Below, one piece after another: positions 22,541 to 64,000 of a stretch of DNA of 64,000 bases (position 1 is the stretch's first letter; every line of letters begins with the position of its first letter). The notes under the pieces are model-generated. The model worked only from the letters and a program-made list of their open reading frames with translations. It was not told the origin of the DNA and did not search any database. Position numbers and translations under genes: made by a program. This DNA comes from Alphaproteobacteria bacterium (GTDB lineage Bacteria > Pseudomonadota > Alphaproteobacteria > Rs-D84), in assembly GCA_017962125.1 (NCBI GenBank), contig JAGCVZ010000013.1:18509-82508 (forward strand). The letters run 5' to 3'.

Positions 22541-22669
22541 GTGCGCGATAACAATTTGCTACAGCCCGCCTTCGCCGATAAGTGTGAAGTTTTTTTCTTT
22601 GGTTGCGACCAACGCTACGGCGAGGCACTCAAAAATTTTAATCGCGCACTTTATTGTGCGCGATAACAA
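22541..22669 (+). repeat. 17-bp direct repeats GTGCGCGATAACAATTT flanking ~95 bp next to the tRNA-Thr 3' end
   Basis: Exact copies at 22541-22557 and 22653-22669. Confidence 0.6.
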
Positions 22670-42795: not shown

Positions 42796-42955
42796 AGATT
42801 TTGTTATTTGTAGTTTGTTATAAAAATATTAAGATTCTGATAAAAATCACCCAGATGGACAGTGGTTTCATTGGGTGTAGTTCCCGAGCCGAATTATTAG
42901 AAATTGGTCGAGAGATTGATTATTTGAAAGATAAATTATGGTTTGTGGATTTGAT

Positions 42956-43519
42956 TTAGACATATTTTTTAATTTTATTTCCACAAACTTTATAAATCTT
43001 GGTATGTTTTGGTATTTTTTTTAATATAATCGGTAATGTATCTTGGTCATAGTTCCATGTCCATTTTATTCCATTCCATAACCCGTTAAATGTTTCTTTA
43101 TATGTTGAACGTTCTATACCTAATTTTCTTTTAATATATATTTTTATCTGGCGATATACACGAGTTATTCTTGATGGTGAAACAATATGTATCTCTGTTG
43201 CACGTTTTAAAACTGGATTTATCCAATCAGAAAAAGATGCGCCCTCGGATACCCAATTTTGTGTGTTTGCAAATTCTTGTGCCATACGTGTTCGTTCTGA
43301 TTCACTTCGTTTACGTGATATAGAACCTGAATTATCATGATATATTTCGTCCAAATGATGTAAAGGTAATTTTTTTGAAATAGCTAGTTTACGTGCATAT
43401 GTAGTTTTTCCAGAACCTGGTGCACCAATAATATGAATTCGTGGCATAACATATCCTTGTGTTTTTATGAAACTATACCATAAAAAGTTCAAAAGCAGTA
43501 TAAAAATAGCCTTTTTCAA
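42956..43519 (-). CDS. P-loop kinase (topology modulation protein FlaR / adenylate kinase-like), cassette gene
   Basis: 187 aa with Walker A IIGAPGSGKTT. Shares the upstream junction module with the next two minus-strand genes. Confidence 0.55.
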   Translation of the reverse strand: MKKAIFILLLNFLWYSFIKTQGYVMPRIHIIGAPGSGKTTYARKLAISKKLPLHHLDEIYHDNSGSISRKRSESERTRMAQEFANTQNWVSEGASFSDWINPVLKRATEIHIVSPSRITRVYRQIKIYIKRKLGIERSTYKETFNGLWNGIKWTWNYDQDTLPIILKKIPKHTKIYKVCGNKIKKYV

Positions 43520-43596
43520 AAAGATAACTTTCGAACTTTTTGTGGGTATTGGAAAACAAATAAAAAACCGCTCTGAAACGAACGGTTGTCTATCTT

Positions 43597-43775
43597 GGTT
43601 GCGGGGGATGGATTTACTTCGTCACCTTGGCTCATTCGCTACGCTCACCGGTGCACTTTCGTTCACCTTTCGCCTACGGTTGAACCACGCTTTTTCGGTG
43701 GTCCAAACCCAACACAACACACGTTAAACAAAAAATACACCACAAAGGTGTATTTTTTATTTAAACTGGTTGTGC
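43597..43775 (+). repeat. att-like copy of the tRNA-fMet 3' end (TGGTTGCGGGGGATGGATTT) plus the shared 150-nt element S, copy 1
   Basis: Near-identical to 46183-46351. The first ~22 nt match the 3' end of tRNA-fMet at 46352-46373. Contains a hairpin (TACACCACAAAGGTGTA) with flanking T-runs. Confidence 0.8.
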
Positions 43776-43853
43776 TCGGTGTGCGGTTCTCGAACTGATA
43801 ACTATATGGATTTAATAGCATTTGTACGAGAAATACAAATTTTTAAAGATAAA

Positions 43854-44987
43854 TTACTTTTGTTTTGATTTTACCGATTTGTTAGTATTACGTTGATTTG
43901 CATATTCTGACAAAGCGACATCGAAAGCATCTTGACCATCTTTACATGCGATATCCGGTTTATAGCCATTTAATTCAAAATTCTTAACAAACATTTCACG
44001 ATATACACAACCGACATTAAATGTCATATTACTATGTGGCAACAAGATATACGCATAATTATACCCGTATACTTCACCACCACATGTGTTTGTACCGATA
44101 AATTTTATATTTGGATAATTAAGCATCTGTGTACAGACCACTTCCCCGGCAGACATTACTTTACCATTTATTAACATGTATATTTGACCATTAAATCCTG
44201 CTTTTTTAGCATCAAATTCTGGTAAAGCGTTTTTGCTAGCATCTTTAAAAATCACAGGATCTTCGTTTGATTCTATGTTAAATTTATTCCCATTAAAATG
44301 TTCATATAATTTTTTTACTGCATTTGCATCTGGATTATTACGTATAAAAACTCTGCGTGCTGCAGGGTAATGATATCCCAGGATATATGATGTTAATTTT
44401 ATCGTTGGCCTATCACTGCCACCATCGTTATCTCGTAAATCAATAATCAGAGTTTTTGCTTTTGGTAACATTGTTTGCCACTGTTGTTCAAATTCTTCTT
44501 TTTCTTCCGGAGTCCAATTAAACAATGTTCGAATACCGATTATACCAATGTCATTTTTTAATTTGACAATAAACTTTTTATCACCCGCAACATTAGAACC
44601 AACATTTGGTCGTTGTTTGCGCAACCTTGTTCGTACACCCTTATCATGCCCGATCATACGAAGGCTTATATGGTTATCTGGTATGATTTCAATGGCTGGT
44701 TTTAATTTTTCCAATAATTCTAACGATGTCATATCGTGTGCATTTTTGTGGATTTCTATCAGTATTTGCAAAATTTTGCGTTTCAGTATTTTATCATGAA
44801 AAGGCCATCCACAATACACATTTACCAGCACACGCGCGAACACAGATACTTCATGCTGGACTTGTTTCGCGGTAAGCATTGTATCAGGGGATTTTGCTTT
44901 TGTGTCGCCGGATGCCACTAAATCACTTGTCTTGGAATCCTGCAACAAAAAATATTCCATTTCCTTAATTGACGGTATTTTGACCAT
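43854..44987 (-). CDS. S41-family peptidase (C-terminal processing/tail-specific protease-like), cassette gene
   Basis: 377 aa. LIIDLRDNDGG and NGKVMSAGEVV boxes match the S41 catalytic Ser/Lys region. Confidence 0.55.
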   Translation of the reverse strand: MVKIPSIKEMEYFLLQDSKTSDLVASGDTKAKSPDTMLTAKQVQHEVSVFARVLVNVYCGWPFHDKILKRKILQILIEIHKNAHDMTSLELLEKLKPAIEIIPDNHISLRMIGHDKGVRTRLRKQRPNVGSNVAGDKKFIVKLKNDIGIIGIRTLFNWTPEEKEEFEQQWQTMLPKAKTLIIDLRDNDGGSDRPTIKLTSYILGYHYPAARRVFIRNNPDANAVKKLYEHFNGNKFNIESNEDPVIFKDASKNALPEFDAKKAGFNGQIYMLINGKVMSAGEVVCTQMLNYPNIKFIGTNTCGGEVYGYNYAYILLPHSNMTFNVGCVYREMFVKNFELNGYKPDIACKDGQDAFDVALSEYANQRNTNKSVKSKQK

Positions 44988-45195
44988 AAATAATCCTTTT
45001 TACGAATTATATCATAAAAAGTTCAAAAGTGGCGAAAATTTTCCGATTTTTTAAATTTAACTTTCGAACTTTTTGTAGGTATTAGTAAAAACTTGCCCCG
45101 GTGGGCAAGTTTTGAAACTCTGGTTGTGCAGTGCGTGCGGTCCTCGAGCCGAATTATTGGAAATAAGGCTAGATATTAATAGAGTAAAAGATAAA

Positions 45196-45939
45196 TTACC
45201 TGATATTAGATTGTTTCCATCTTAATGCGTTTAGAAGATAATTTCTGGCTAATTCAATATCAAATAATCCAGCACGTCGCAATTGACCCTCGGCATCAAT
45301 CCAAGTATCGTATTCTTGTGGCAAAATTCCAGAAATTTTATTCAAATTATATTCAACGTTATCAGCCGACATACCGCCGGCATAACCAAATTGAATATCT
45401 TTGTATACTGGAGTGTCCCAATGATCTGGAGACCTACCAATACCGTAAGATGCATCAAATAATAATTTAAATTTTGTACTGAATTTTTTTAACTCATAAA
45501 TTTGTGGCTTTGTATTTTGATTAAATGGAAATATAAATTCACAATCTGGAAAACACTTGAACAAACCTATAATTTTATTTGGTACAAAAGTTGTCGTATT
45601 ATCACCAATATTCAACTGAACACGTTTTATCAAAGATTTATTTGATTTATTATTTTTGCGACTAAGCCATCCAGCTATTTCGCTAGGAATTAAGCCATTT
45701 GACATATAGTCACACCATTCATAATTTACATGTAATGCAAGATTAGGTTGTATTGTCAAACTTTCAACAGCATCTAATAAATTATTCATCCACTCATTGC
45801 GTGGCATGCCAACAATCATCGCACTTTTATGCGCCTGAATTCCTAATTCCGCCAACGGTGATATTTGTAGTAACTTTATCGTTTCTTCTATTGATAAATT
45901 CTCACGCGGATCAGACATAGTTATATAACGCAAGTGCAT
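45196..45939 (-). CDS. Hypothetical protein (possible TIM-barrel/PRAI-like), cassette gene
   Basis: 247 aa. A weak FGYAGGMSADNV box. Preceded by the conserved promoter module (TTGCAT...TGtTATAAT). Confidence 0.45.
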   Translation of the reverse strand: MHLRYITMSDPRENLSIEETIKLLQISPLAELGIQAHKSAMIVGMPRNEWMNNLLDAVESLTIQPNLALHVNYEWCDYMSNGLIPSEIAGWLSRKNNKSNKSLIKRVQLNIGDNTTTFVPNKIIGLFKCFPDCEFIFPFNQNTKPQIYELKKFSTKFKLLFDASYGIGRSPDHWDTPVYKDIQFGYAGGMSADNVEYNLNKISGILPQEYDTWIDAEGQLRRAGLFDIELARNYLLNALRWKQSNIR

Positions 45940-46182
45940 GTAACCCCCTTTTTATTATTTTTACAACAAGTGATTATAACATAAAAAGTTCAAATGCAAT
46001 ATAAAAATAACCTTTTTCAAAAAGATAACTTTCGAACTTTTTGTAGGTATTGGAAAACAAATAAAAACTTGCCCCGGTGGGCAAGTTTTTGATACAGCCC
46101 GTCTTCGTCCTTTGGACTATGGCGCGGCACTGAATTTTCTAAACAAAAATACCGCAAACGCGGTATTTTTAGAAAATTCGTG

Positions 46183-46351
46183 GTTGCGGGGGATGGATTT
46201 ACTTCGTCACCTTGGCTCATTCGCTACGCTCACCGGTGCACTTTCGTTCACCTTTCGCCTACGGTTGAACCACGCTTTTTCGGTGGTCCAAATCCAACAC
46301 AACACACGTTAAACAAAAAATACACCACAAAGGTGTATTTTTTATTTAAAC
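46183..46351 (+). repeat. att-like copy of the tRNA-fMet 3' end plus shared 150-nt element S, copy 2 (directly abutting tRNA-fMet)
   Basis: Matches 43597-43775 with a single mismatch (C/T). Confidence 0.8.
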
Positions 46352-46428
<77 letters not shown>

Positions 46429-61494: not shown

Positions 61495-61610
61495 GACGAG
61501 TAATTATACACTATTTTGGAACAATGTTCAAATGGTAATCGGTTCCCATAAAAGTTTGACTATGATTTTCTTGCAATCGGGAAAAAGTTTGTTATAATGC
61601 GCGATGTTAT

Positions 61611-61686
61611 GGCGGCGTAGCTCAGTGGTAGAGCAGAGGAATCATAATCCTTTGGTCAGGGGTCCGAATCCCTTCGCCGCTACCAA
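61611..61686 (+). tRNA. tRNA-Met (elongator, anticodon CAU; tRNA-Ile2/lysidine cannot be excluded)
   Basis: Cloverleaf by eye with anticodon loop ATCATAA and CCA encoded. A hairpin terminator ATCGGGCTTGTCCCGAT plus T-run lies at 61692-61720. Confidence 0.8.
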
Positions 61687-61825
61687 AAATTAAATCGGGC
61701 TTGTCCCGATTTTGTTTTTGGTATAGTCCGCGGTGGATGAGGACCCGCGGGTCCGACACGATAGCCGGTTTTGCAAGCCTTGGCGTAGCGAAACCGTTGC
61801 GAGTGGAAAGGGGCCCATTGCAGAG

Positions 61826-61855
61826 CAATGGGAATATACAATCCCTTCGCCATAT
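61826..61855 (+). repeat. Partial copy of the tRNA-Met 3' portion (GGGAATATACAATCCCTTCGCC)
   Basis: Matches the T-arm/acceptor 3' strand of tRNA-Met (GGGGTCCGAATCCCTTCGCC). A second partial copy lies at 63935-63965. Confidence 0.6.
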
Positions 61856-61948
61856 AGTCACGAAATAAAAAATCTAAAAAATGGACAAAAATATCAAATT
61901 TTTTCAAATTTTCTACACAACGGATACACAGATGTTTACATGGATATA

Positions 61949-63847
61949 TTATTGTTTTTTTACTTTGGATAGGTTTTTGTAAAATTCGTTCAGCATATAC
62001 ATATTATCTGTATTTTTTATCCCCAATGCATTTAATGCTTCGCGTTGCATTTTATTTGAATTTTCCGGCATCCAATACCCAACTATTTCAGGGAATATTT
62101 CTTTGAATTTTGGATAAATATCGTTACGTTCCTGGGATAATGCAGTAATAAAATCATAATATTTTTTTGGGATTCCACGTATTTTTTTCAAAGCAAGCAA
62201 ATCTGCAAATGTGGCATCCGCCAAGTGTAATTTTTGTGCTGTTTCATAGTATAGTTGATATAAAGCAATTGCACGTGGAAATATGACGTCCAATATTATA
62301 TATTGTGCAACAACAGTTTCACTGTAATATAATCTGGTTGCGGCATTTGTAGTGTTTTGTGCCAAAGAAATATATTTTTTTGCAGTATTTATACAAGATT
62401 TATAAAAACGGTGAACGGCGGATGCAGACATAGATTTTGCAATTTCATATGCTTTATTTAATGCAGGCAAATATCCCGGCAATTTTTTATGATTTCTGTC
62501 TTCAAACCATGAAAAGAATTTCATGCTATATTGGGAATCGCCACGTATAATATTCGGTGCAACACCAAATTTTTTACGGATAAACAAATCTAAATCTGAA
62601 ACATCTTTGGATTCCATCCATGGTGCATAAACATTCAACCTATTTGGTAACGATTCTGCCAAGACACAGCCACCGTTATATGGCACGCGTTTCATATTAT
62701 CAAACAACCATGCTTCATCCATCCAAGCGGTTTCATTTGATTGCATAAATTCGATATCTTCTTTGATTTGACCGGTGGTTGCATTCATTGTGATTATATC
62801 GCCGGTTTTGAACTTTTTCGTCGCGTTTGGATAATTAACTATGCATGGAATACCAAGTTCCCGTGATAAAATTGCAGCATGACTTAAAACGCCACCTTGT
62901 TCAGTTATAATACCAGAGGCGCGTTTCATAATTGGAACAAAGTCAACTTCGGTATAAAGTGCAACCAGTATCGCCCCATCTGGAAAATTATCAAAACGTT
63001 TTTTCATAATCTCTGGTGATGTATGCGCACCCAATTCTGGAATTACGTATACAGGGGCAGTCACAGTTCCGCCAACCACAGGAATAGCAGAATTATTGGT
63101 GCGATTTTTTATAAATACAGGTTGGGTTATTGGGCGTGCTTGGACAAACCAAACATGTCCATCAGAATCAATACACCATTCTGTATCCAATTTTTTCTTT
63201 GATTTATTACGCAGAATTTGTATTTTTTCAATTAAACTGTTTATTGAATCTATACCAGGCAATAATTTTCCAGAAATAGATATGTTATTATTATCCAAAA
63301 TATTGTTACGAACAGGCACTTTGATTTGTGTTGGTGTGACTAATCCAGAAACCAATTTATCACCAAGACCCGATGTGACTTCTATCAAAACAACTTCTGA
63401 ACTATCTGTGTCAACAGCACTGGTGAAAGCGACCCCAGAAATAACAGGATTGACCATTTTTTGAATCACGACACCCATATTATTGGTGCTGCCATCGTAT
63501 TCGTTTACGCGTAACGATTTACCACTGGCAATAACAGATGAAATCGCATTGCGTAAATCTTTCTTTGTTGTCGGGATATTTAATTTGCTTTCAAACATAC
63601 CAGCAAAAGATTTTTGTGCGCCATCTTCATTTGCGGCAGAGGAACGAACTGCAACTAAAACATTTTTGCCAAAATATTCAATAATTTCATCTAATGTTTT
63701 ATCAGATATATCGGATGCCTGTGACCAATTCAAAGCCACCCATTGTGGGACTGGCATCTTCAATTTATTTAACAAAGCAAGCCCTGCGGCTTTGCCACCA
63801 CAGGTATTTGAGTTATCATTATTAAATTTATTTGTTTTTTGGGTCAT
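61949..63847 (-). CDS. PEP-utilising-enzyme family phosphotransferase (PPDK-type ATP-grasp plus mobile phosphohistidine domain), rifampin-phosphotransferase/PEP-synthase-like
   Basis: ATP-binding CGGKAAGLALL N-domain, swivelling His domain GGVLSHAAILSRELGIPCIV, then a ~260 aa C-terminal domain of unknown family. Start at MTQKT follows AAAGGA. Confidence 0.65.
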   Translation of the reverse strand: MTQKTNKFNNDNSNTCGGKAAGLALLNKLKMPVPQWVALNWSQASDISDKTLDEIIEYFGKNVLVAVRSSAANEDGAQKSFAGMFESKLNIPTTKKDLRNAISSVIASGKSLRVNEYDGSTNNMGVVIQKMVNPVISGVAFTSAVDTDSSEVVLIEVTSGLGDKLVSGLVTPTQIKVPVRNNILDNNNISISGKLLPGIDSINSLIEKIQILRNKSKKKLDTEWCIDSDGHVWFVQARPITQPVFIKNRTNNSAIPVVGGTVTAPVYVIPELGAHTSPEIMKKRFDNFPDGAILVALYTEVDFVPIMKRASGIITEQGGVLSHAAILSRELGIPCIVNYPNATKKFKTGDIITMNATTGQIKEDIEFMQSNETAWMDEAWLFDNMKRVPYNGGCVLAESLPNRLNVYAPWMESKDVSDLDLFIRKKFGVAPNIIRGDSQYSMKFFSWFEDRNHKKLPGYLPALNKAYEIAKSMSASAVHRFYKSCINTAKKYISLAQNTTNAATRLYYSETVVAQYIILDVIFPRAIALYQLYYETAQKLHLADATFADLLALKKIRGIPKKYYDFITALSQERNDIYPKFKEIFPEIVGYWMPENSNKMQREALNALGIKNTDNMYMLNEFYKNLSKVKKQ

Positions 63848-63934
63848 CTGTAATCCTTTGATAACAATCAATATGGCATAAATTTGTGGATAATACAATA
63901 AAAATCCTGGTTAGCTCAATTTATAAAATCGGTG

Positions 63935-63965
63935 GAGTGGGAATGTGCAATCCCTTCGCCACCGC
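63935..63965 (+). repeat. Second partial copy of the tRNA-Met 3' portion (GGGAATGTGCAATCCCTTCGCCACCGCCCCA)
   Basis: Seen in sequence. Together with 61826-61855 it brackets the PEP-utilising enzyme gene. Confidence 0.6.
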
Positions 63966-64000
63966 CCCATTTTACATAATTCTACACACCGACTATATGG

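Follow-up and report, generated by a model that had tools for sequence, protein, structure and literature searches.

RtT-like structured repeats ending in tRNA tails at a probable insertion hotspot downstream of tRNA(CAU) in an Enterousia-like alphaproteobacterium

The rtT RNA of Escherichia coli was reportedly first described in 1991 and the tyrT repeats some years before, and local duplication or unequal crossing-over is said to have been proposed historically for these repeats. To our knowledge, RtT has been recorded only from enterobacteria, and we know of no report of its insertion polymorphism within an integrase hotspot. Integration into tRNA genes was reportedly divided into sublocation classes by Williams in 2002. 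CIMEs and MITE-like derivatives are att-flanked units without recombination genes that accumulate in tandem beside tRNA genes, and integron attC sites are folded sites, conserved in structure rather than in sequence, which can form short integrase-less arrays by one primary site.

Expression of RtT and variation in its copy number are on record (PMC4147364, PMC2658671, PMC3318445), and in E. coli it is a processed RNA as well (PMC3318445, PMC4147364). In Salmonella, its copy number acts as a VNTR (PMC2658671), and its mode of action is unknown according to a 2024 preprint (10.1101/2024.07.17.603846). Genomic islands in tRNA and tmRNA genes are described by the Islander concept (PMC4383910), and in tycheposons and tRNA islands known from streamlined marine genomes, older elements are moved outward as new ones integrate in tandem (10.1101/2020.12.28.424599).

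Here we describe a tRNA locus in a window of 64,000 nt (the whole stretch of DNA analysed, from contig JAGCVZ010000013.1). The host is a Candidatus Enterousia-like gut/rumen alphaproteobacterium with a reduced genome, from a lineage of about 1 Mb. The tRNA gene, with anticodon CAT, is called Met and is either elongator Met or Ile2 (lysidine); the identical sequence was found in about 30 related genomes. In the initial annotation, two partial copies of its 3' half were read as att-like sites bracketing an enzyme gene. The features of the locus are:

61571-61598, + strand: promoter-like site of the tRNA gene from a consensus scan (TTGCAA, 16 nt, TATAAT, with TG)
61611-61685, + strand: tRNA, anticodon CAT (ARAGORN; Rfam RF00005, 66.4 bits)
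61681-61723, core 61692-61712: intrinsic-terminator hairpin, terminator-like on both strands
61720-61858, + strand: module A, an RtT-like structured repeat (nhmmer family member; 123.9 bits with the covariance model R2, whose seed includes it)
61829-61852, + strand: copy 1, TGGGAATATACAATCCCTTCGCCA, with exact tRNA identity only at 61840-61851
61852-61948, + strand: junction and arm-type-repeat DNA, ATATAGTCAC and onward, with CTACAC at 61913, ATACAC at 61924 and TTTACA at 61935
61949-63847, - strand: gene for a PEP-utilising-type enzyme of 632 aa (Pfam PPDK_N and PEP-utilizers domains)
63875-63967, + strand: second A-type module remnant, containing copy 2 (second-best R2 match in the window, 16.7 bits, E 0.019)
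63938-63961, + strand: copy 2, TGGGAATGTGCAATCCCTTCGCCA, whose tail equals the tRNA at 63949-63960
63961-64000, + strand: arm-type-repeat DNA right of copy 2, TTTACATAATTCTACACACCGACTATATGG, then CGGTTTACAC past the window end

ARAGORN places the tRNA end at 61685, not at 61686 as first annotated, and the tail duplicated downstream consists of the final 19 nt, AATCCCTTCGCCGCTACCA (61667-61685). In relatives, the motif cttgcaat..gttataat is kept 5' of the gene. The terminator already noticed in the spacer is an inverted repeat with 19-nt arms that are 89% complementary, its stem extending leftward into TACCA of the tRNA and rightward into GGTA, with which module A begins.

The exact 12-mer AATCCCTTCGCC occurs at 61667, inside the tRNA, and at 61840 and 63949, every time on the + strand. 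The copies share 22 of 24 nt with each other (61829-61852 against 63938-63961) and are closer to one another than to the tRNA, their identity with which is limited to the 3' end of the T loop, the 3' strand of the T stem and 4-5 nt at the start of the acceptor 3' strand. Both tails are truncated, copy 1 retaining 12 and copy 2 15 of the 19 nt: copy 1 lacks GCTACCA, being cut after CGCC and joined to ATATAGTCAC, and copy 2 runs on as ACCGCCCCA. An exact identity as short as 12 nt might suggest a chance resemblance, but at no more than one mismatch AATCCCTTCGCC has 5 matches against 0.23 expected, a number reached in 0 of 100 shuffles, and the 22-mer GGGAATRTRCAATCCCTTCGCC singled out by the initial annotation has 2 exact matches against 0.00 expected. 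With the same structure recurring in dozens of genomes and co-varying with the tRNA, we give chance practically no credence. The suggestion that the fragments might fold as tRNA-like structures fared otherwise, as neither copy was called as a tRNA, tmRNA or Rfam family (ARAGORN; Rfam at gathering thresholds and at E<=10 on 61500-64000), and ARAGORN and Rfam call only four true tRNAs in the window. A T-loop intron or insertion in a functional tRNA was discarded, the insert never being present in a true tRNA.

Rather than being a bare att scar, copy 1 forms the tail of a structured, conserved module of about 135 nt. Module A opens with a 5' segment, GGTATAGTCCGCGGTGGAT, that is the complement of the tRNA tail, and a closing helix pairs GUAUA (61721-61725) with UAUAC (61835-61839). 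Its stem P1 is the exact palindrome GGACCCGCGGGTCC (61741-61754), found once in the window, whose 3' strand, GGGTCCGA, equals the T-stem 5' half together with the beginning of the T loop. Two hairpins follow, a middle one at about 61764-61801 and a distal one at 61814-61832, and then the tail. Across 14 aligned members, RNAalifold gives 25 pairs, 11 of them with compensatory changes, and P1 itself appears as GGCCCC..GGGGCC in L029 and as GAACTG..CAGTTC in L091. The 14-bp palindrome had been rightly reported, but its proposed role as a protein-binding site did not hold up, since P1 varies by compensatory changes, which argues for base pairing over a sequence-specific protein site. No Rfam family matches module A (E<=10 on 61500-64000). 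In relatives, this module has the complete AATCCCTTCGCCGCTACCA at its end, and the truncation of its tail here suggests that the module A of the window may be a dead copy.

Copy 2, in turn, is formed by the last 30 nt or so of a second, decayed module; this remnant, which can be aligned with a third copy in L043, is missing from L182 and L184. On inspection, a hammerhead ribozyme (from GGAUGAG, a stem and CGAC) was dismissed, as positions C3, U4 and A14 of its core do not fit and no Rfam match exists, and so was a minihelix with an acceptor stem of canonical form, because its 5' strand does not adjoin the T stem. A permuted or two-piece tmRNA was likewise set aside, there being neither a tag reading frame nor an ARAGORN call.

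The parallel drawn in the initial annotation with tRNA-fMet is real. The 20-mer AAATCCATCCCCCGCAACCA has exactly three occurrences on the - strand of the window (46352, 46181 and 43596), which lie within these features:

46178-46428, - strand: the whole tRNA-fMet parallel locus
46352-46428, - strand: tRNA-fMet
46309-46349, - strand: terminator hairpin of tRNA-fMet
46181-46292, - strand: B-family module ending in the tRNA-fMet tail AAATCCATCCCCCGCAACCA (full-length match of covariance model R1, E about 1e-4)
43593-43772, - strand: second 180-nt unit of terminator, B module and fMet tail, 99% identical (R1 match at 43596-43707)

The second unit lies 2.6 kb farther from tRNA-fMet, past two unrelated genes. 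The seed of R1 holds only clade-2 tRNA-Met modules of other species, and the model recovers clade-1 modules together with both fMet modules of the window. In a set of 11 B-family sequences, 93% of cells are paired and 14 of 32 pairs show double changes (0 of 500 shuffles equal this). With 31 distinct sequences, the paired fraction is 92.5%, a value inflated by fitting the alignment to the model, and compensatory changes affect 25 of 32 pairs, against 0 of 500 shuffles and 31-50% for slid controls. The helices contain 22 G.U against 7 A.C combinations, and the A/G variation in TRTRC faces U; both features point to folding of the tRNA-sense strand, on which the modules would thus be expected to fold.

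We searched for modules on both strands of 1.47 Mb, comprising 81 loci and the window, a sample biased to the tRNA-Met locus, and all matches by nhmmer and covariance model sit 3' of tRNA-Met or tRNA-fMet. A dispersed repeat of the RPE, REP or MITE type was rejected on the ground that matches are confined to these neighbourhoods in the locus-biased 1.47 Mb. Over four variants of the tRNA-Met tail, module tails match the tRNA of their own species at 18-19 of 19 nt, and T-arm stems and tails alike follow the sequence of each host's tRNA. The difference between occupied and empty sites is exactly terminator, module and tail. Beyond these loci, a strict B-module pattern gave nothing in IMG/VR and three true matches in metagenome contigs, all 3' of a tRNA-Met of the same clade, while the 80 IMG/VR matches of a loose pattern were all chance. 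The A-module pattern found one IMG/VR contig, the phage-like L091, with tandem A modules that carry a different tRNA-like tail beside an endolysin gene. The modules of L023 and L032 gave neither a tRNA or tmRNA fold nor an Rfam RtT match.

These data bear on whether the modules act through RNA at all. They might operate at the DNA level only, as attP arm plus attR of an element or phage family or as CIME/MITE-like units of about 170 bp mobilised in trans, with hairpins acting as cruciforms or attC-like folded single strands and the RNA having no function. Precise insertion with a 17-19-nt target duplication, tandem units (L015, L029, L065, L087 and L091), mosaic hairpin variants across species and the position of the L091 modules would all be consistent with this, as would the tail matching the host tRNA, which is expected of a displaced host end at attR, and the truncated-tail junctions, which show recombination there. 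However, the modules have neither arm-type TTACAC repeats nor a recombinase gene, a circle as small as about 170 bp makes an awkward substrate for recombination, and the multi-branch fold, the conserved junction nucleotides and the sense-strand G.U bias are more typical of RNA, as is suggested also by the expression and processing of the analogue RtT (PMC3318445, PMC4147364). We hold action in DNA alone to be possible, though on balance doubtful.

Taken overall, the locus is hypervariable. Across 80 related genomes, PagL, tRNA-Met, tRNA-Thr(GGT) and aspS stay in this order, but the gap between the two tRNAs can be as short as 74 nt (L050) or as long as 9647 nt (L053). Flavodoxin, DNA_alkylation and nitroreductase genes beside tRNA-Thr are conserved in 13-18 loci, the genes proximal to tRNA-Met are not conserved among relatives, and inverted arrangements are present. 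In L017, L024 and L053, elements of 3.4-4.4 kb occupy the tRNA-Met site and encode a tyrosine integrase of 473-476 aa (HTH_17, Arm-DNA-bind_3 and Phage_integrase), with a P4-like domain set in relatives. They are bordered by the tRNA and a 45-nt duplicate of its 3' half, running from the anticodon loop through CCA, and this duplicate adjoins an arm with CTACAC repeats, as it does in L176. The presence of intact elements in three relatives makes the site a genuine att hotspot, so that the att reading of the initial annotation holds for the tRNA itself.

Arm-repeat DNA with TTACAC or CTACAC, which flanks these integrase elements, also stands right of both window copies. The stretch at 61852-61948 is common to L182, where it is attached to a different module, and the DNA right of copy 2 is about 90% identical to L184 and to the sequence flanking the third L043 copy. 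Both window tails are cut within the acceptor strand and joined to such DNA, from which we infer that module tails may have served as secondary att or crossover sites. A 10-nt match, TAATCCTTTG at 63851-63860, was considered as an anticodon-arm remnant of attR; it may be chance and was downgraded, given its overlap with the PEP gene's Shine-Dalgarno sequence and the diverged forms of it found in L182 and L184.

Right-hand flanks of a single set follow either the tRNA or a module tail depending on the species and break exactly at ACCA. This pattern, the intact integrase elements that use this tRNA in relatives and the arm-repeat DNA abutting both window copies are hard to reconcile with an origin free of site-specific recombination, in which the 3' region of the tRNA was duplicated locally or by unequal crossing-over and then drifted. 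Such an origin could account for repeats that are local and in tandem, for the VNTR-like copy number of RtT in Salmonella (PMC2658671) and for the doubling of the 180-nt fMet unit at 99% identity; we nevertheless consider it very improbable.

Between the copies lies, as had been recognised, a minus-strand gene for an enzyme with an ATP-grasp PPDK_N domain, a phosphohistidine swivel domain and a C-terminal part of about 270 aa that has no Pfam match; the protein falls under all NCBIfam cut-offs. Its likely promoter, at 63919-63890 on the - strand, is inside the second A-type module remnant. The notion of a species-specific new cargo was overturned by homologues 83-96% identical at the same locus of metagenome contigs, with differing flanks.

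Taken literally, the initial annotation describes two sequential integrations that left two attR scars, the PEP gene being cargo of an element bounded by the copies. The direct repeats are correctly oriented for this and have arm-type repeats to their right, the PEP gene region is lower in GC (35-37% against 41-46% on the PagL side), the gene was not found in the 80 related reference loci, and tandem accretion is documented for tycheposons (10.1101/2020.12.28.424599). The nearest relatives decide otherwise: L182 and L184, with PEP proteins 96% and 90% identical, have the gene in the same position and orientation without copy 2, and hence copies 1 and 2 are not the bounds of a single cassette. 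In L184, the arm found right of copy 2 in the window sits on the opposite side of the gene, and in L176 and L179 the gene has inverted or rearranged surroundings. The segment bounded by the copies shows no presence or absence with repeat breakpoints among close relatives, since L182 and L184 keep the gene, miss copy 2 and have shuffled flanks. Module A, with copy 1, is of a kind present in many species without the PEP gene, and no integrase or fragment of one was found; tblastn with the P4-type integrase of L024 detected no homologue in the window, its extension, L005 or L006 (best E 2.3). We therefore consider the two-integration account unlikely. The PEP gene is a resident of the variable region rather than demonstrated cargo of a live element, and the window holds no active element today.

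Taken together, the stretch 3' of tRNA(CAU) is probably an old, still variable hotspot with two layers of tRNA-tail duplication. In the first, shown in relatives, tyrosine-integrase elements enter the tRNA, restoring the gene as they do so and shifting a partial tRNA copy away from it; later insertions move older material farther from the tRNA, and integrases are subsequently lost through deletions and inversions. The second layer is the folded module of about 135 nt directly behind the tRNA terminator, opening with the anti-tail segment and continuing with a hairpin of the T-arm 5' half and its complement, two or three more hairpins and the last 17-19 nt of the tRNA. The PEP gene, a resident of the variable region, would lie between two tails by happenstance. 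By analogy with E. coli RtT, the modules would be read-through or processed RNAs with a 3' end formed in the way of a tRNA 3' end, although the intrinsic terminator between tRNA and module speaks against this.

As a tentative extension, which we consider possible rather than probable, RtT-type modules could form a widespread, so far unrecognised class of tRNA-tail-capped structured elements (Met, fMet and a further tRNA in a phage-like contig here, Tyr in enterobacteria) that copies itself onto tRNA 3' ends, rebuilds the anti-tail segment, T-arm hairpin and tail for each host and has its own function. If so, they would be processed RNAs imitating the acceptor/T-arm end of a tRNA or, alternatively, decoy landing pads at which integrases with acceptor-strand crossovers insert, so that the essential tRNA gene is spared. 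The modules combine strong covariation, insertion polymorphism and parts co-varying with the host tRNA, and with the same architecture on other tRNAs in another bacterial class, RtT is no longer a mere curiosity and becomes open to comparative study. It can now be asked which features are universal (anti-tail segment, split T arm, CCA-ending tail) and whether integrase traffic at tRNA genes has a link with the repeats. In its att scars the locus is ordinary, a further tRNA-linked flexible island, though in a barely studied gut/rumen alphaproteobacterial lineage in which such hotspots seem to serve as a main path of gene turnover.

Compared with known systems, the locus resembles tRNA-gene islands in having a regenerated intact tRNA at one end and a displaced partial copy at the other, and the integrase elements of relatives are island-like in their identity block, from anticodon loop to 3' end, and their variable occupancy. 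The window differs in having no integrase, copies of only 12-15 nt and no bounded single island. With tycheposons it shares a small genome, tRNA-Met(CAT) among the targets, tandem integration with outward displacement of older elements, degenerate remnants, scattered partial tRNAs and non-mobile 'island genes' between partial tRNAs; unlike here, no structured modules are described for them (10.1101/2020.12.28.424599). As against CIMEs and MITE-like units, the modules are only about 170 bp, with a strongly conserved multi-helix fold and parts that follow the tRNA sequence. Like integron attC arrays, they are folded, structure-conserved, integrase-less short units beside one primary site. R''/R' motifs (RYYYAAC/GTTRRRY) were not noted by eye in the sequences, the P4-type query, which matched nothing in the window, would miss an IntI-type integrase, and the genes here, unlike integron cassettes, have their own promoters and lie in either orientation.

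Judged by architecture, the closest analogue of the modules is RtT (rttR; Rfam RF00391; tyrT-tyrV operon). Both are units of about 130-178 nt directly 3' of a tRNA, on the same strand and often in tandem, and both close with the last 19 nt of their tRNA at the same T-loop start (AAT|CC...CCA), carry the T-stem 5' half and T-loop start farther upstream in a small hairpin and open with a segment complementary to the tail, which allows a closing helix to form. Module A and RtT also share GGAUGAG between the 5' segment and the hairpin. In E. coli NC_000913.3, the 19-nt tRNA-Tyr tail is present 6 times, and each RtT unit has AAGGTTCGA (T-arm 5' half) in a hairpin, an insert and the tail, with a 5' GGGGAAGG that pairs with the tail. 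The best E. coli matches of R1 and R2 are all four RtT units at full length, with weak scores of 8-16 bits that come partly from tRNA-derived segments (tRNA genes score 5-7 bits). The Rfam RtT model, which gives 133-138 bits on E. coli as a positive control, has no match at gathering in the window, at E<=10 on 61500-64000 or in L023 and L032, and nhmmer finds nothing significant between modules and RtT in either direction. The two differ in host and tRNA (Alphaproteobacteria with Met/fMet against Enterobacteria with Tyr) and in their interior helices; unlike in the E. coli tyrT operon, an intrinsic terminator separates tRNA and module in Enterousia, where the modules, compared with RtT, are insertion-polymorphic and embedded in an integrase hotspot. 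The locus is of a known kind and carries a new tRNA-linked repeat variant.

The DNA behind tRNA-Met in the window is most likely a decayed integration hotspot in which the tRNA-proximal repeat is a structured module resembling the RtT repeat of Escherichia coli. Two partial copies of the tRNA 3' end lie on either side of a minus-strand gene for a PEP-utilising enzyme, the first of them closing a module, that is, a structured repeat behind the tRNA terminator that ends in a copy of the tRNA tail (its last 17-19 nt). The features of this interval are listed below.

61611-61685, plus strand: tRNA, anticodon CAT (ARAGORN; Rfam tRNA, 66.4 bits)
61692-61712: terminator hairpin
61741-61754: 14-bp palindrome
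61829-61852: copy 1, the 3' end of a GC-rich A module of ~135 nt
61949-63847, minus strand: PEP-utilising enzyme gene, with PPDK_N and PEP-utilizers domains
63938-63961: copy 2, retaining the A-specific TGGGAATGTGC and 12 nt of the tail

The label "Met" for 61611-61685 is the ARAGORN default, and the anticodon CAT also fits tRNA-Ile2 (lysidine).

The 64 kb contain three exact occurrences of the 12-mer AATCCCTTCGCC (61667, 61840 and 63949), always on the plus strand; it begins in the last part of the T-loop, takes in the T-stem 3' strand and runs into the acceptor 3' strand. With at most one mismatch it has 5 matches against 0.23 expected, as many being reached in 0 of 100 shuffles, and the 22-mer picked out in the initial annotation has 2 matches against 0.00 expected, so the similarity to the tRNA 3' end proposed there is not due to chance. 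The annotation was also accurate on the terminator hairpin, on the palindrome and on the matching geometry at tRNA-fMet, the last 20 nt of which are found three times, at 46352, 46181 and 43596. The check it proposed, for tRNA-like folding of the fragments, was negative: neither copy is called as a tRNA, a tmRNA or an Rfam family (ARAGORN; Rfam even at E<=10). Copies 1 and 2 have 22 of 24 nt in common, each being closer to the other than to the tRNA.

The module that ends in copy 1 begins right behind the terminator, at 61720, and belongs to family A; about a dozen relatives have this family behind tRNA-Met, with the full tail AATCCCTTCGCCGCTACCA. Family B comprises tRNA-Met modules of both clades together with both tRNA-fMet units of the window, and A/B hybrids are present, for example in the related loci L013 and L182. 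Both families are built alike. At the 5' end, a segment is complementary to the tail of the tRNA (in A, GGTATAGTCGCGAGTGGAT versus ATCCCTTCGCCGCTACC); next comes hairpin P1, which repeats the T-stem 5' half and the first T-loop bases in its 3' strand and has their complement as its 5' strand; two to three more hairpins with conserved linkers follow, and the tail closes the module. Put differently, the module resembles the T arm plus acceptor 3' strand of the tRNA, with the T-loop widened by an 80-nt insert and an antisense cap added.

P1 and the tail co-vary with the host tRNA. Tails agree with the tRNA of the same species at 18-19 of 19 positions over four tail variants, and in the loci L063 and L070, the modules of which are nearly identical, the tails differ, each being equal to its own tRNA. 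A tail copy lies 124-170 nt behind the tRNA in about a third of loci.

P1 strands of the modules
Clade 1 tRNA-Met: GGACCCC / GGGGTCC
Clade 2 tRNA-Met: GAACCCCC / GGGGGTTC
tRNA-fMet: GGACCAC / GTGGTTC
tRNA-like tail of the phage-like contig L091: GAACTG / CAGTTC

This phage-like contig (IMGVR_UViG_3300037512_000333, positions 1-400) ends in tandem A-type modules, whose tail AATCTGGTCACCCGCCCCA, P1 GAACTG/CAGTTC and 5' anti-tail segment all fit a different tRNA; the array lies directly behind an apparent endolysin-like gene, a call made from sequence only.

Family B was annotated with five helices, namely P1, a three-way junction Pa with P2 and P3, and P4, and the modules covary along them. Across 11 clade-2 B sequences, 93.1% of cells are paired, against 27-47% with slid partners, and changes on both sides occur in 14 of 32 pairs, a number matched by 0 of 500 shuffles. 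A covariance model of these 11 sequences recovers, at full length, the clade-1 modules and also the two fMet modules present in the window (E 1e-4 to 6e-6), with no match outside these tRNA loci in 1.47 Mb. Among 31 distinct B sequences, double changes are seen in 25 of 32 pairs (equalled by 0 of 500 shuffles) and 92.5% of cells are paired; these sequences were aligned to the model, which pushes the paired fraction up. For family A, RNAalifold gives P1, a two-level middle hairpin, a distal hairpin and a closing helix GUAUA/URURC. Because G.T exceeds A.C in the family B helices (22 versus 7), and because the A/G variation that the initial annotation wrote as "RTR" stands opposite U, with A-U alternating with G.U, these patterns point to the tRNA-sense strand as the one that would fold. 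The modules are presumed to be expressed as RNA. The palindrome, first read as a possible protein-binding site, is P1 itself, and since P1 changes by compensation (GGCCCCCAGGGGCC in the relative L029), a sequence-specific protein site is unlikely here.

Modules are discrete insertions that are polymorphic between relatives. In L033 and L035, TCCGTCTTCGCTTCGCTCC... stands directly behind the tRNA. L020 and L026 have this flank behind a module tail, with ~175 nt of terminator, module A or B and tail in between. A few right-hand flanks recur behind the tRNA or a module tail across species, the break always falling at ACCA, and tandem units are found in L015, L029, L065, L087 and L091. A flank of ~100 nt, TCCGTCTTCGCTTCGCTCCGTCGCGATTGG...GACGGGC, lies downstream of tRNA-Met or of a module tail in L020, L026, L033, L035 and L044; it is ~90% identical between two clades that differ at many tRNA-Met positions, and probably represents a further small mobile unit joining on behind ACCA.

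A different kind of break is seen at copy 1, the tail of which stops after CGCC and runs on as ATATAGTCAC..., with CTACAC, ATACAC and TTTACA repeats to its right. In L182, the nearest relative (PEP enzyme 96% identical), the same arm DNA and PEP gene are present but attached to a different module, ending AATCCCGAGCCGC/GTAGTCA, so 61851/61852 is a recombination junction. Copy 2 is covered by the second-best window match of R2, a covariance model of family A with the window module in its seed (63875-63967, 16.7 bits, E 0.019), and its right flank TTTACATAATTCTACACACCGACTATATGGCGGTTTACAC is ~90% identical to that of the equivalent junction in L043. Tails that break off within the acceptor strand and continue as (A)TAGT... 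are seen in the window, L016, L019, L043, L182 and L184. Because these junctions are confined to module tails and never fall on the tRNA, we infer that module tails may be usable as secondary att sites, where they would serve as harmless crossover sites.

The tRNA-fMet locus (42869-46428, minus strand) resembles a small cassette array. Its 180-nt unit of terminator, B module and fMet tail is duplicated at 99%, and the second unit is preceded at 43768-43800 (minus strand) by AAATCCA/TATAGTTATCAGTTCGAGAACCGCACACCGAGCACAACCA, a truncated fMet tail with a TATAGT-type junction. Copy 1 has a similar junction on its right (61852), so two different tRNAs share this junction type. A promoter-like segment of 93 nt has two copies 95% identical (43474-43566 and 45975-46067) and a third, diverged one at 45035-45089, the copies preceding three unrelated genes: a 247-aa protein without assigned function, an S41 peptidase and an AAA_33 or "DNA topology modulation"-like kinase. 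At the stop codon of each begins a segment of 48-70 nt (42869-42938, 43809-43856 and 45129-45198). GC-rich hairpins of the form GTGCC(G/T)CGCCGTAGC...GGCGAAG(A/G)CGGGCTGTA lie on the minus strand downstream of tRNA-Thr(CGT) (22560-22640) and of the first fMet unit (46100-46140), and this family also stands behind tRNA-Met or module tails in many relatives, as the "CGAATTTT..." flank. Elsewhere in the window, direct repeats are found at 1254-1430 and 2330-2547 (119 nt at 86% and 62 nt at 79%, ~1.1 kb apart) and at 15461-15533 and 16777-16849 (73 nt at 86%, 1.3 kb apart).

Through the neighbouring PagL-like protein, we collected 80 related loci from uncultured Alphaproteobacteria of gut and rumen; many of these carry the label Candidatus Enterousia, with ~1-Mb genomes. 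The order PagL, tRNA-Met(CAT), tRNA-Thr(GGT), aspS is kept across them, and the locus is hypervariable, with 74 to 9647 nt between tRNA-Met and tRNA-Thr. For the window's genome the figure is ~5.25 kb, and the genes in this gap encode the PEP enzyme, an S51 peptidase, a flavodoxin, a DNA_alkylation protein and a nitroreductase. The last three, on the tRNA-Thr side, are found again in 13-18 relatives, and the tRNA-Met-proximal genes do not recur among the relatives' loci, a pattern that would be expected if new DNA enters at the tRNA and older DNA is displaced outward, as described for tycheposon islands (10.1101/2020.12.28.424599).

Intact integrase elements occupy this position in L017, L024 and L053, as segments of 3.4-4.4 kb immediately behind the tRNA. 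Each encodes a protein of 473-476 aa with HTH_17, Arm-DNA-bind_3 and Phage_integrase domains, along with defence-type cargo (AAA_21/AbiEii-like ATPase, DUF3800). The tRNA-proximal end opens with a terminator and TTACA(C/T) repeats; at the other, an arm with CTACAC repeats precedes the terminal ATCATAATCCTTTGGTCAGGGGTCCGAATCCCTTCGCCGCTACCA, which equals the tRNA from anticodon loop to CCA. This attR is present in L176 too. tRNA-Met is a genuine att site, and a regenerated target with a displaced fragment is the classical picture of a tRNA island (PMC4383910). No integrase homologue was found in the window, L005 or L006 (best E 2.3). In L064, L084, L176, L179 and L180, the tRNA-Met-proximal segment, tRNA included, is inverted relative to PagL, which suggests inversions between oppositely oriented tail-like sequences.

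The att-site reading of the initial annotation was thus right in kind, given these elements, but not in treating the PEP gene as cargo bounded by the two copies. The gene is at the same place in L182 and L184, both of which lack copy 2; in L184, the arm found right of copy 2 in the window sits at the opposite end of the gene, and in L176, L179 and L180 the gene has inverted or rearranged contexts. It is therefore a variable-region gene with shuffled flanks and not the cargo of a single element between the two copies; the order of events in the window is a reconstruction. Homologues 50-96% identical are found only in this alphaproteobacterial group, and those in Bacilli are ~35% identical. The enzyme has an unusual build, with an ATP-grasp domain, a phosphohistidine swivel and then ~270 aa that match nothing in Pfam and stand where a TIM-barrel PEP-utilizers_C domain is usual, and it falls under every NCBIfam cut-off. 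The same two Pfam domains occur in thousands of metagenome proteins, almost all unnamed, and most of the best 120 listed are 600-650 aa long. In a more distant organism, a homologue 64% identical adjoins tRNA-Ser(TGA) (L181, 2378-8878), where a prophage-like element is integrated with a large serine recombinase, DUF2924, a reverse-transcriptase-like gene and a terminase.

The modules match no Rfam family. Their nearest known counterpart is the RtT repeat (RF00391) of the E. coli tyrT-tyrV operon. NC_000913.3 has six occurrences of the 19-nt tRNA-Tyr tail AATCCTTCCCCCACCACCA; four mark the ends of RtT units, three of which are spaced 178 nt. Like the modules, the RtT unit has a segment, GGGGAAGG, pairing with the tail, a GAUGAG, a hairpin GAA(C/G)CUU...AAGGUUC in which the 5' half of the T arm stands against its complement, and an insert followed by the tail from the same T-loop position. 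The best matches of R2 and of R1, a model of clade-2 tRNA-Met B modules, both built from Enterousia sequences only, are all four RtT units, at full length and with agreeing ends; the scores are only 8-16 bits, tRNA genes themselves reaching 5-7 bits, and sequence-only HMMs find nothing in either direction. The modules therefore share the architecture of RtT: they look like it and may work like it, yet fail membership of RF00391, and homology is not established. For the island aspect of the locus, the nearest concepts are tRNA-gene islands (PMC4383910) together with tycheposon-type accretion.
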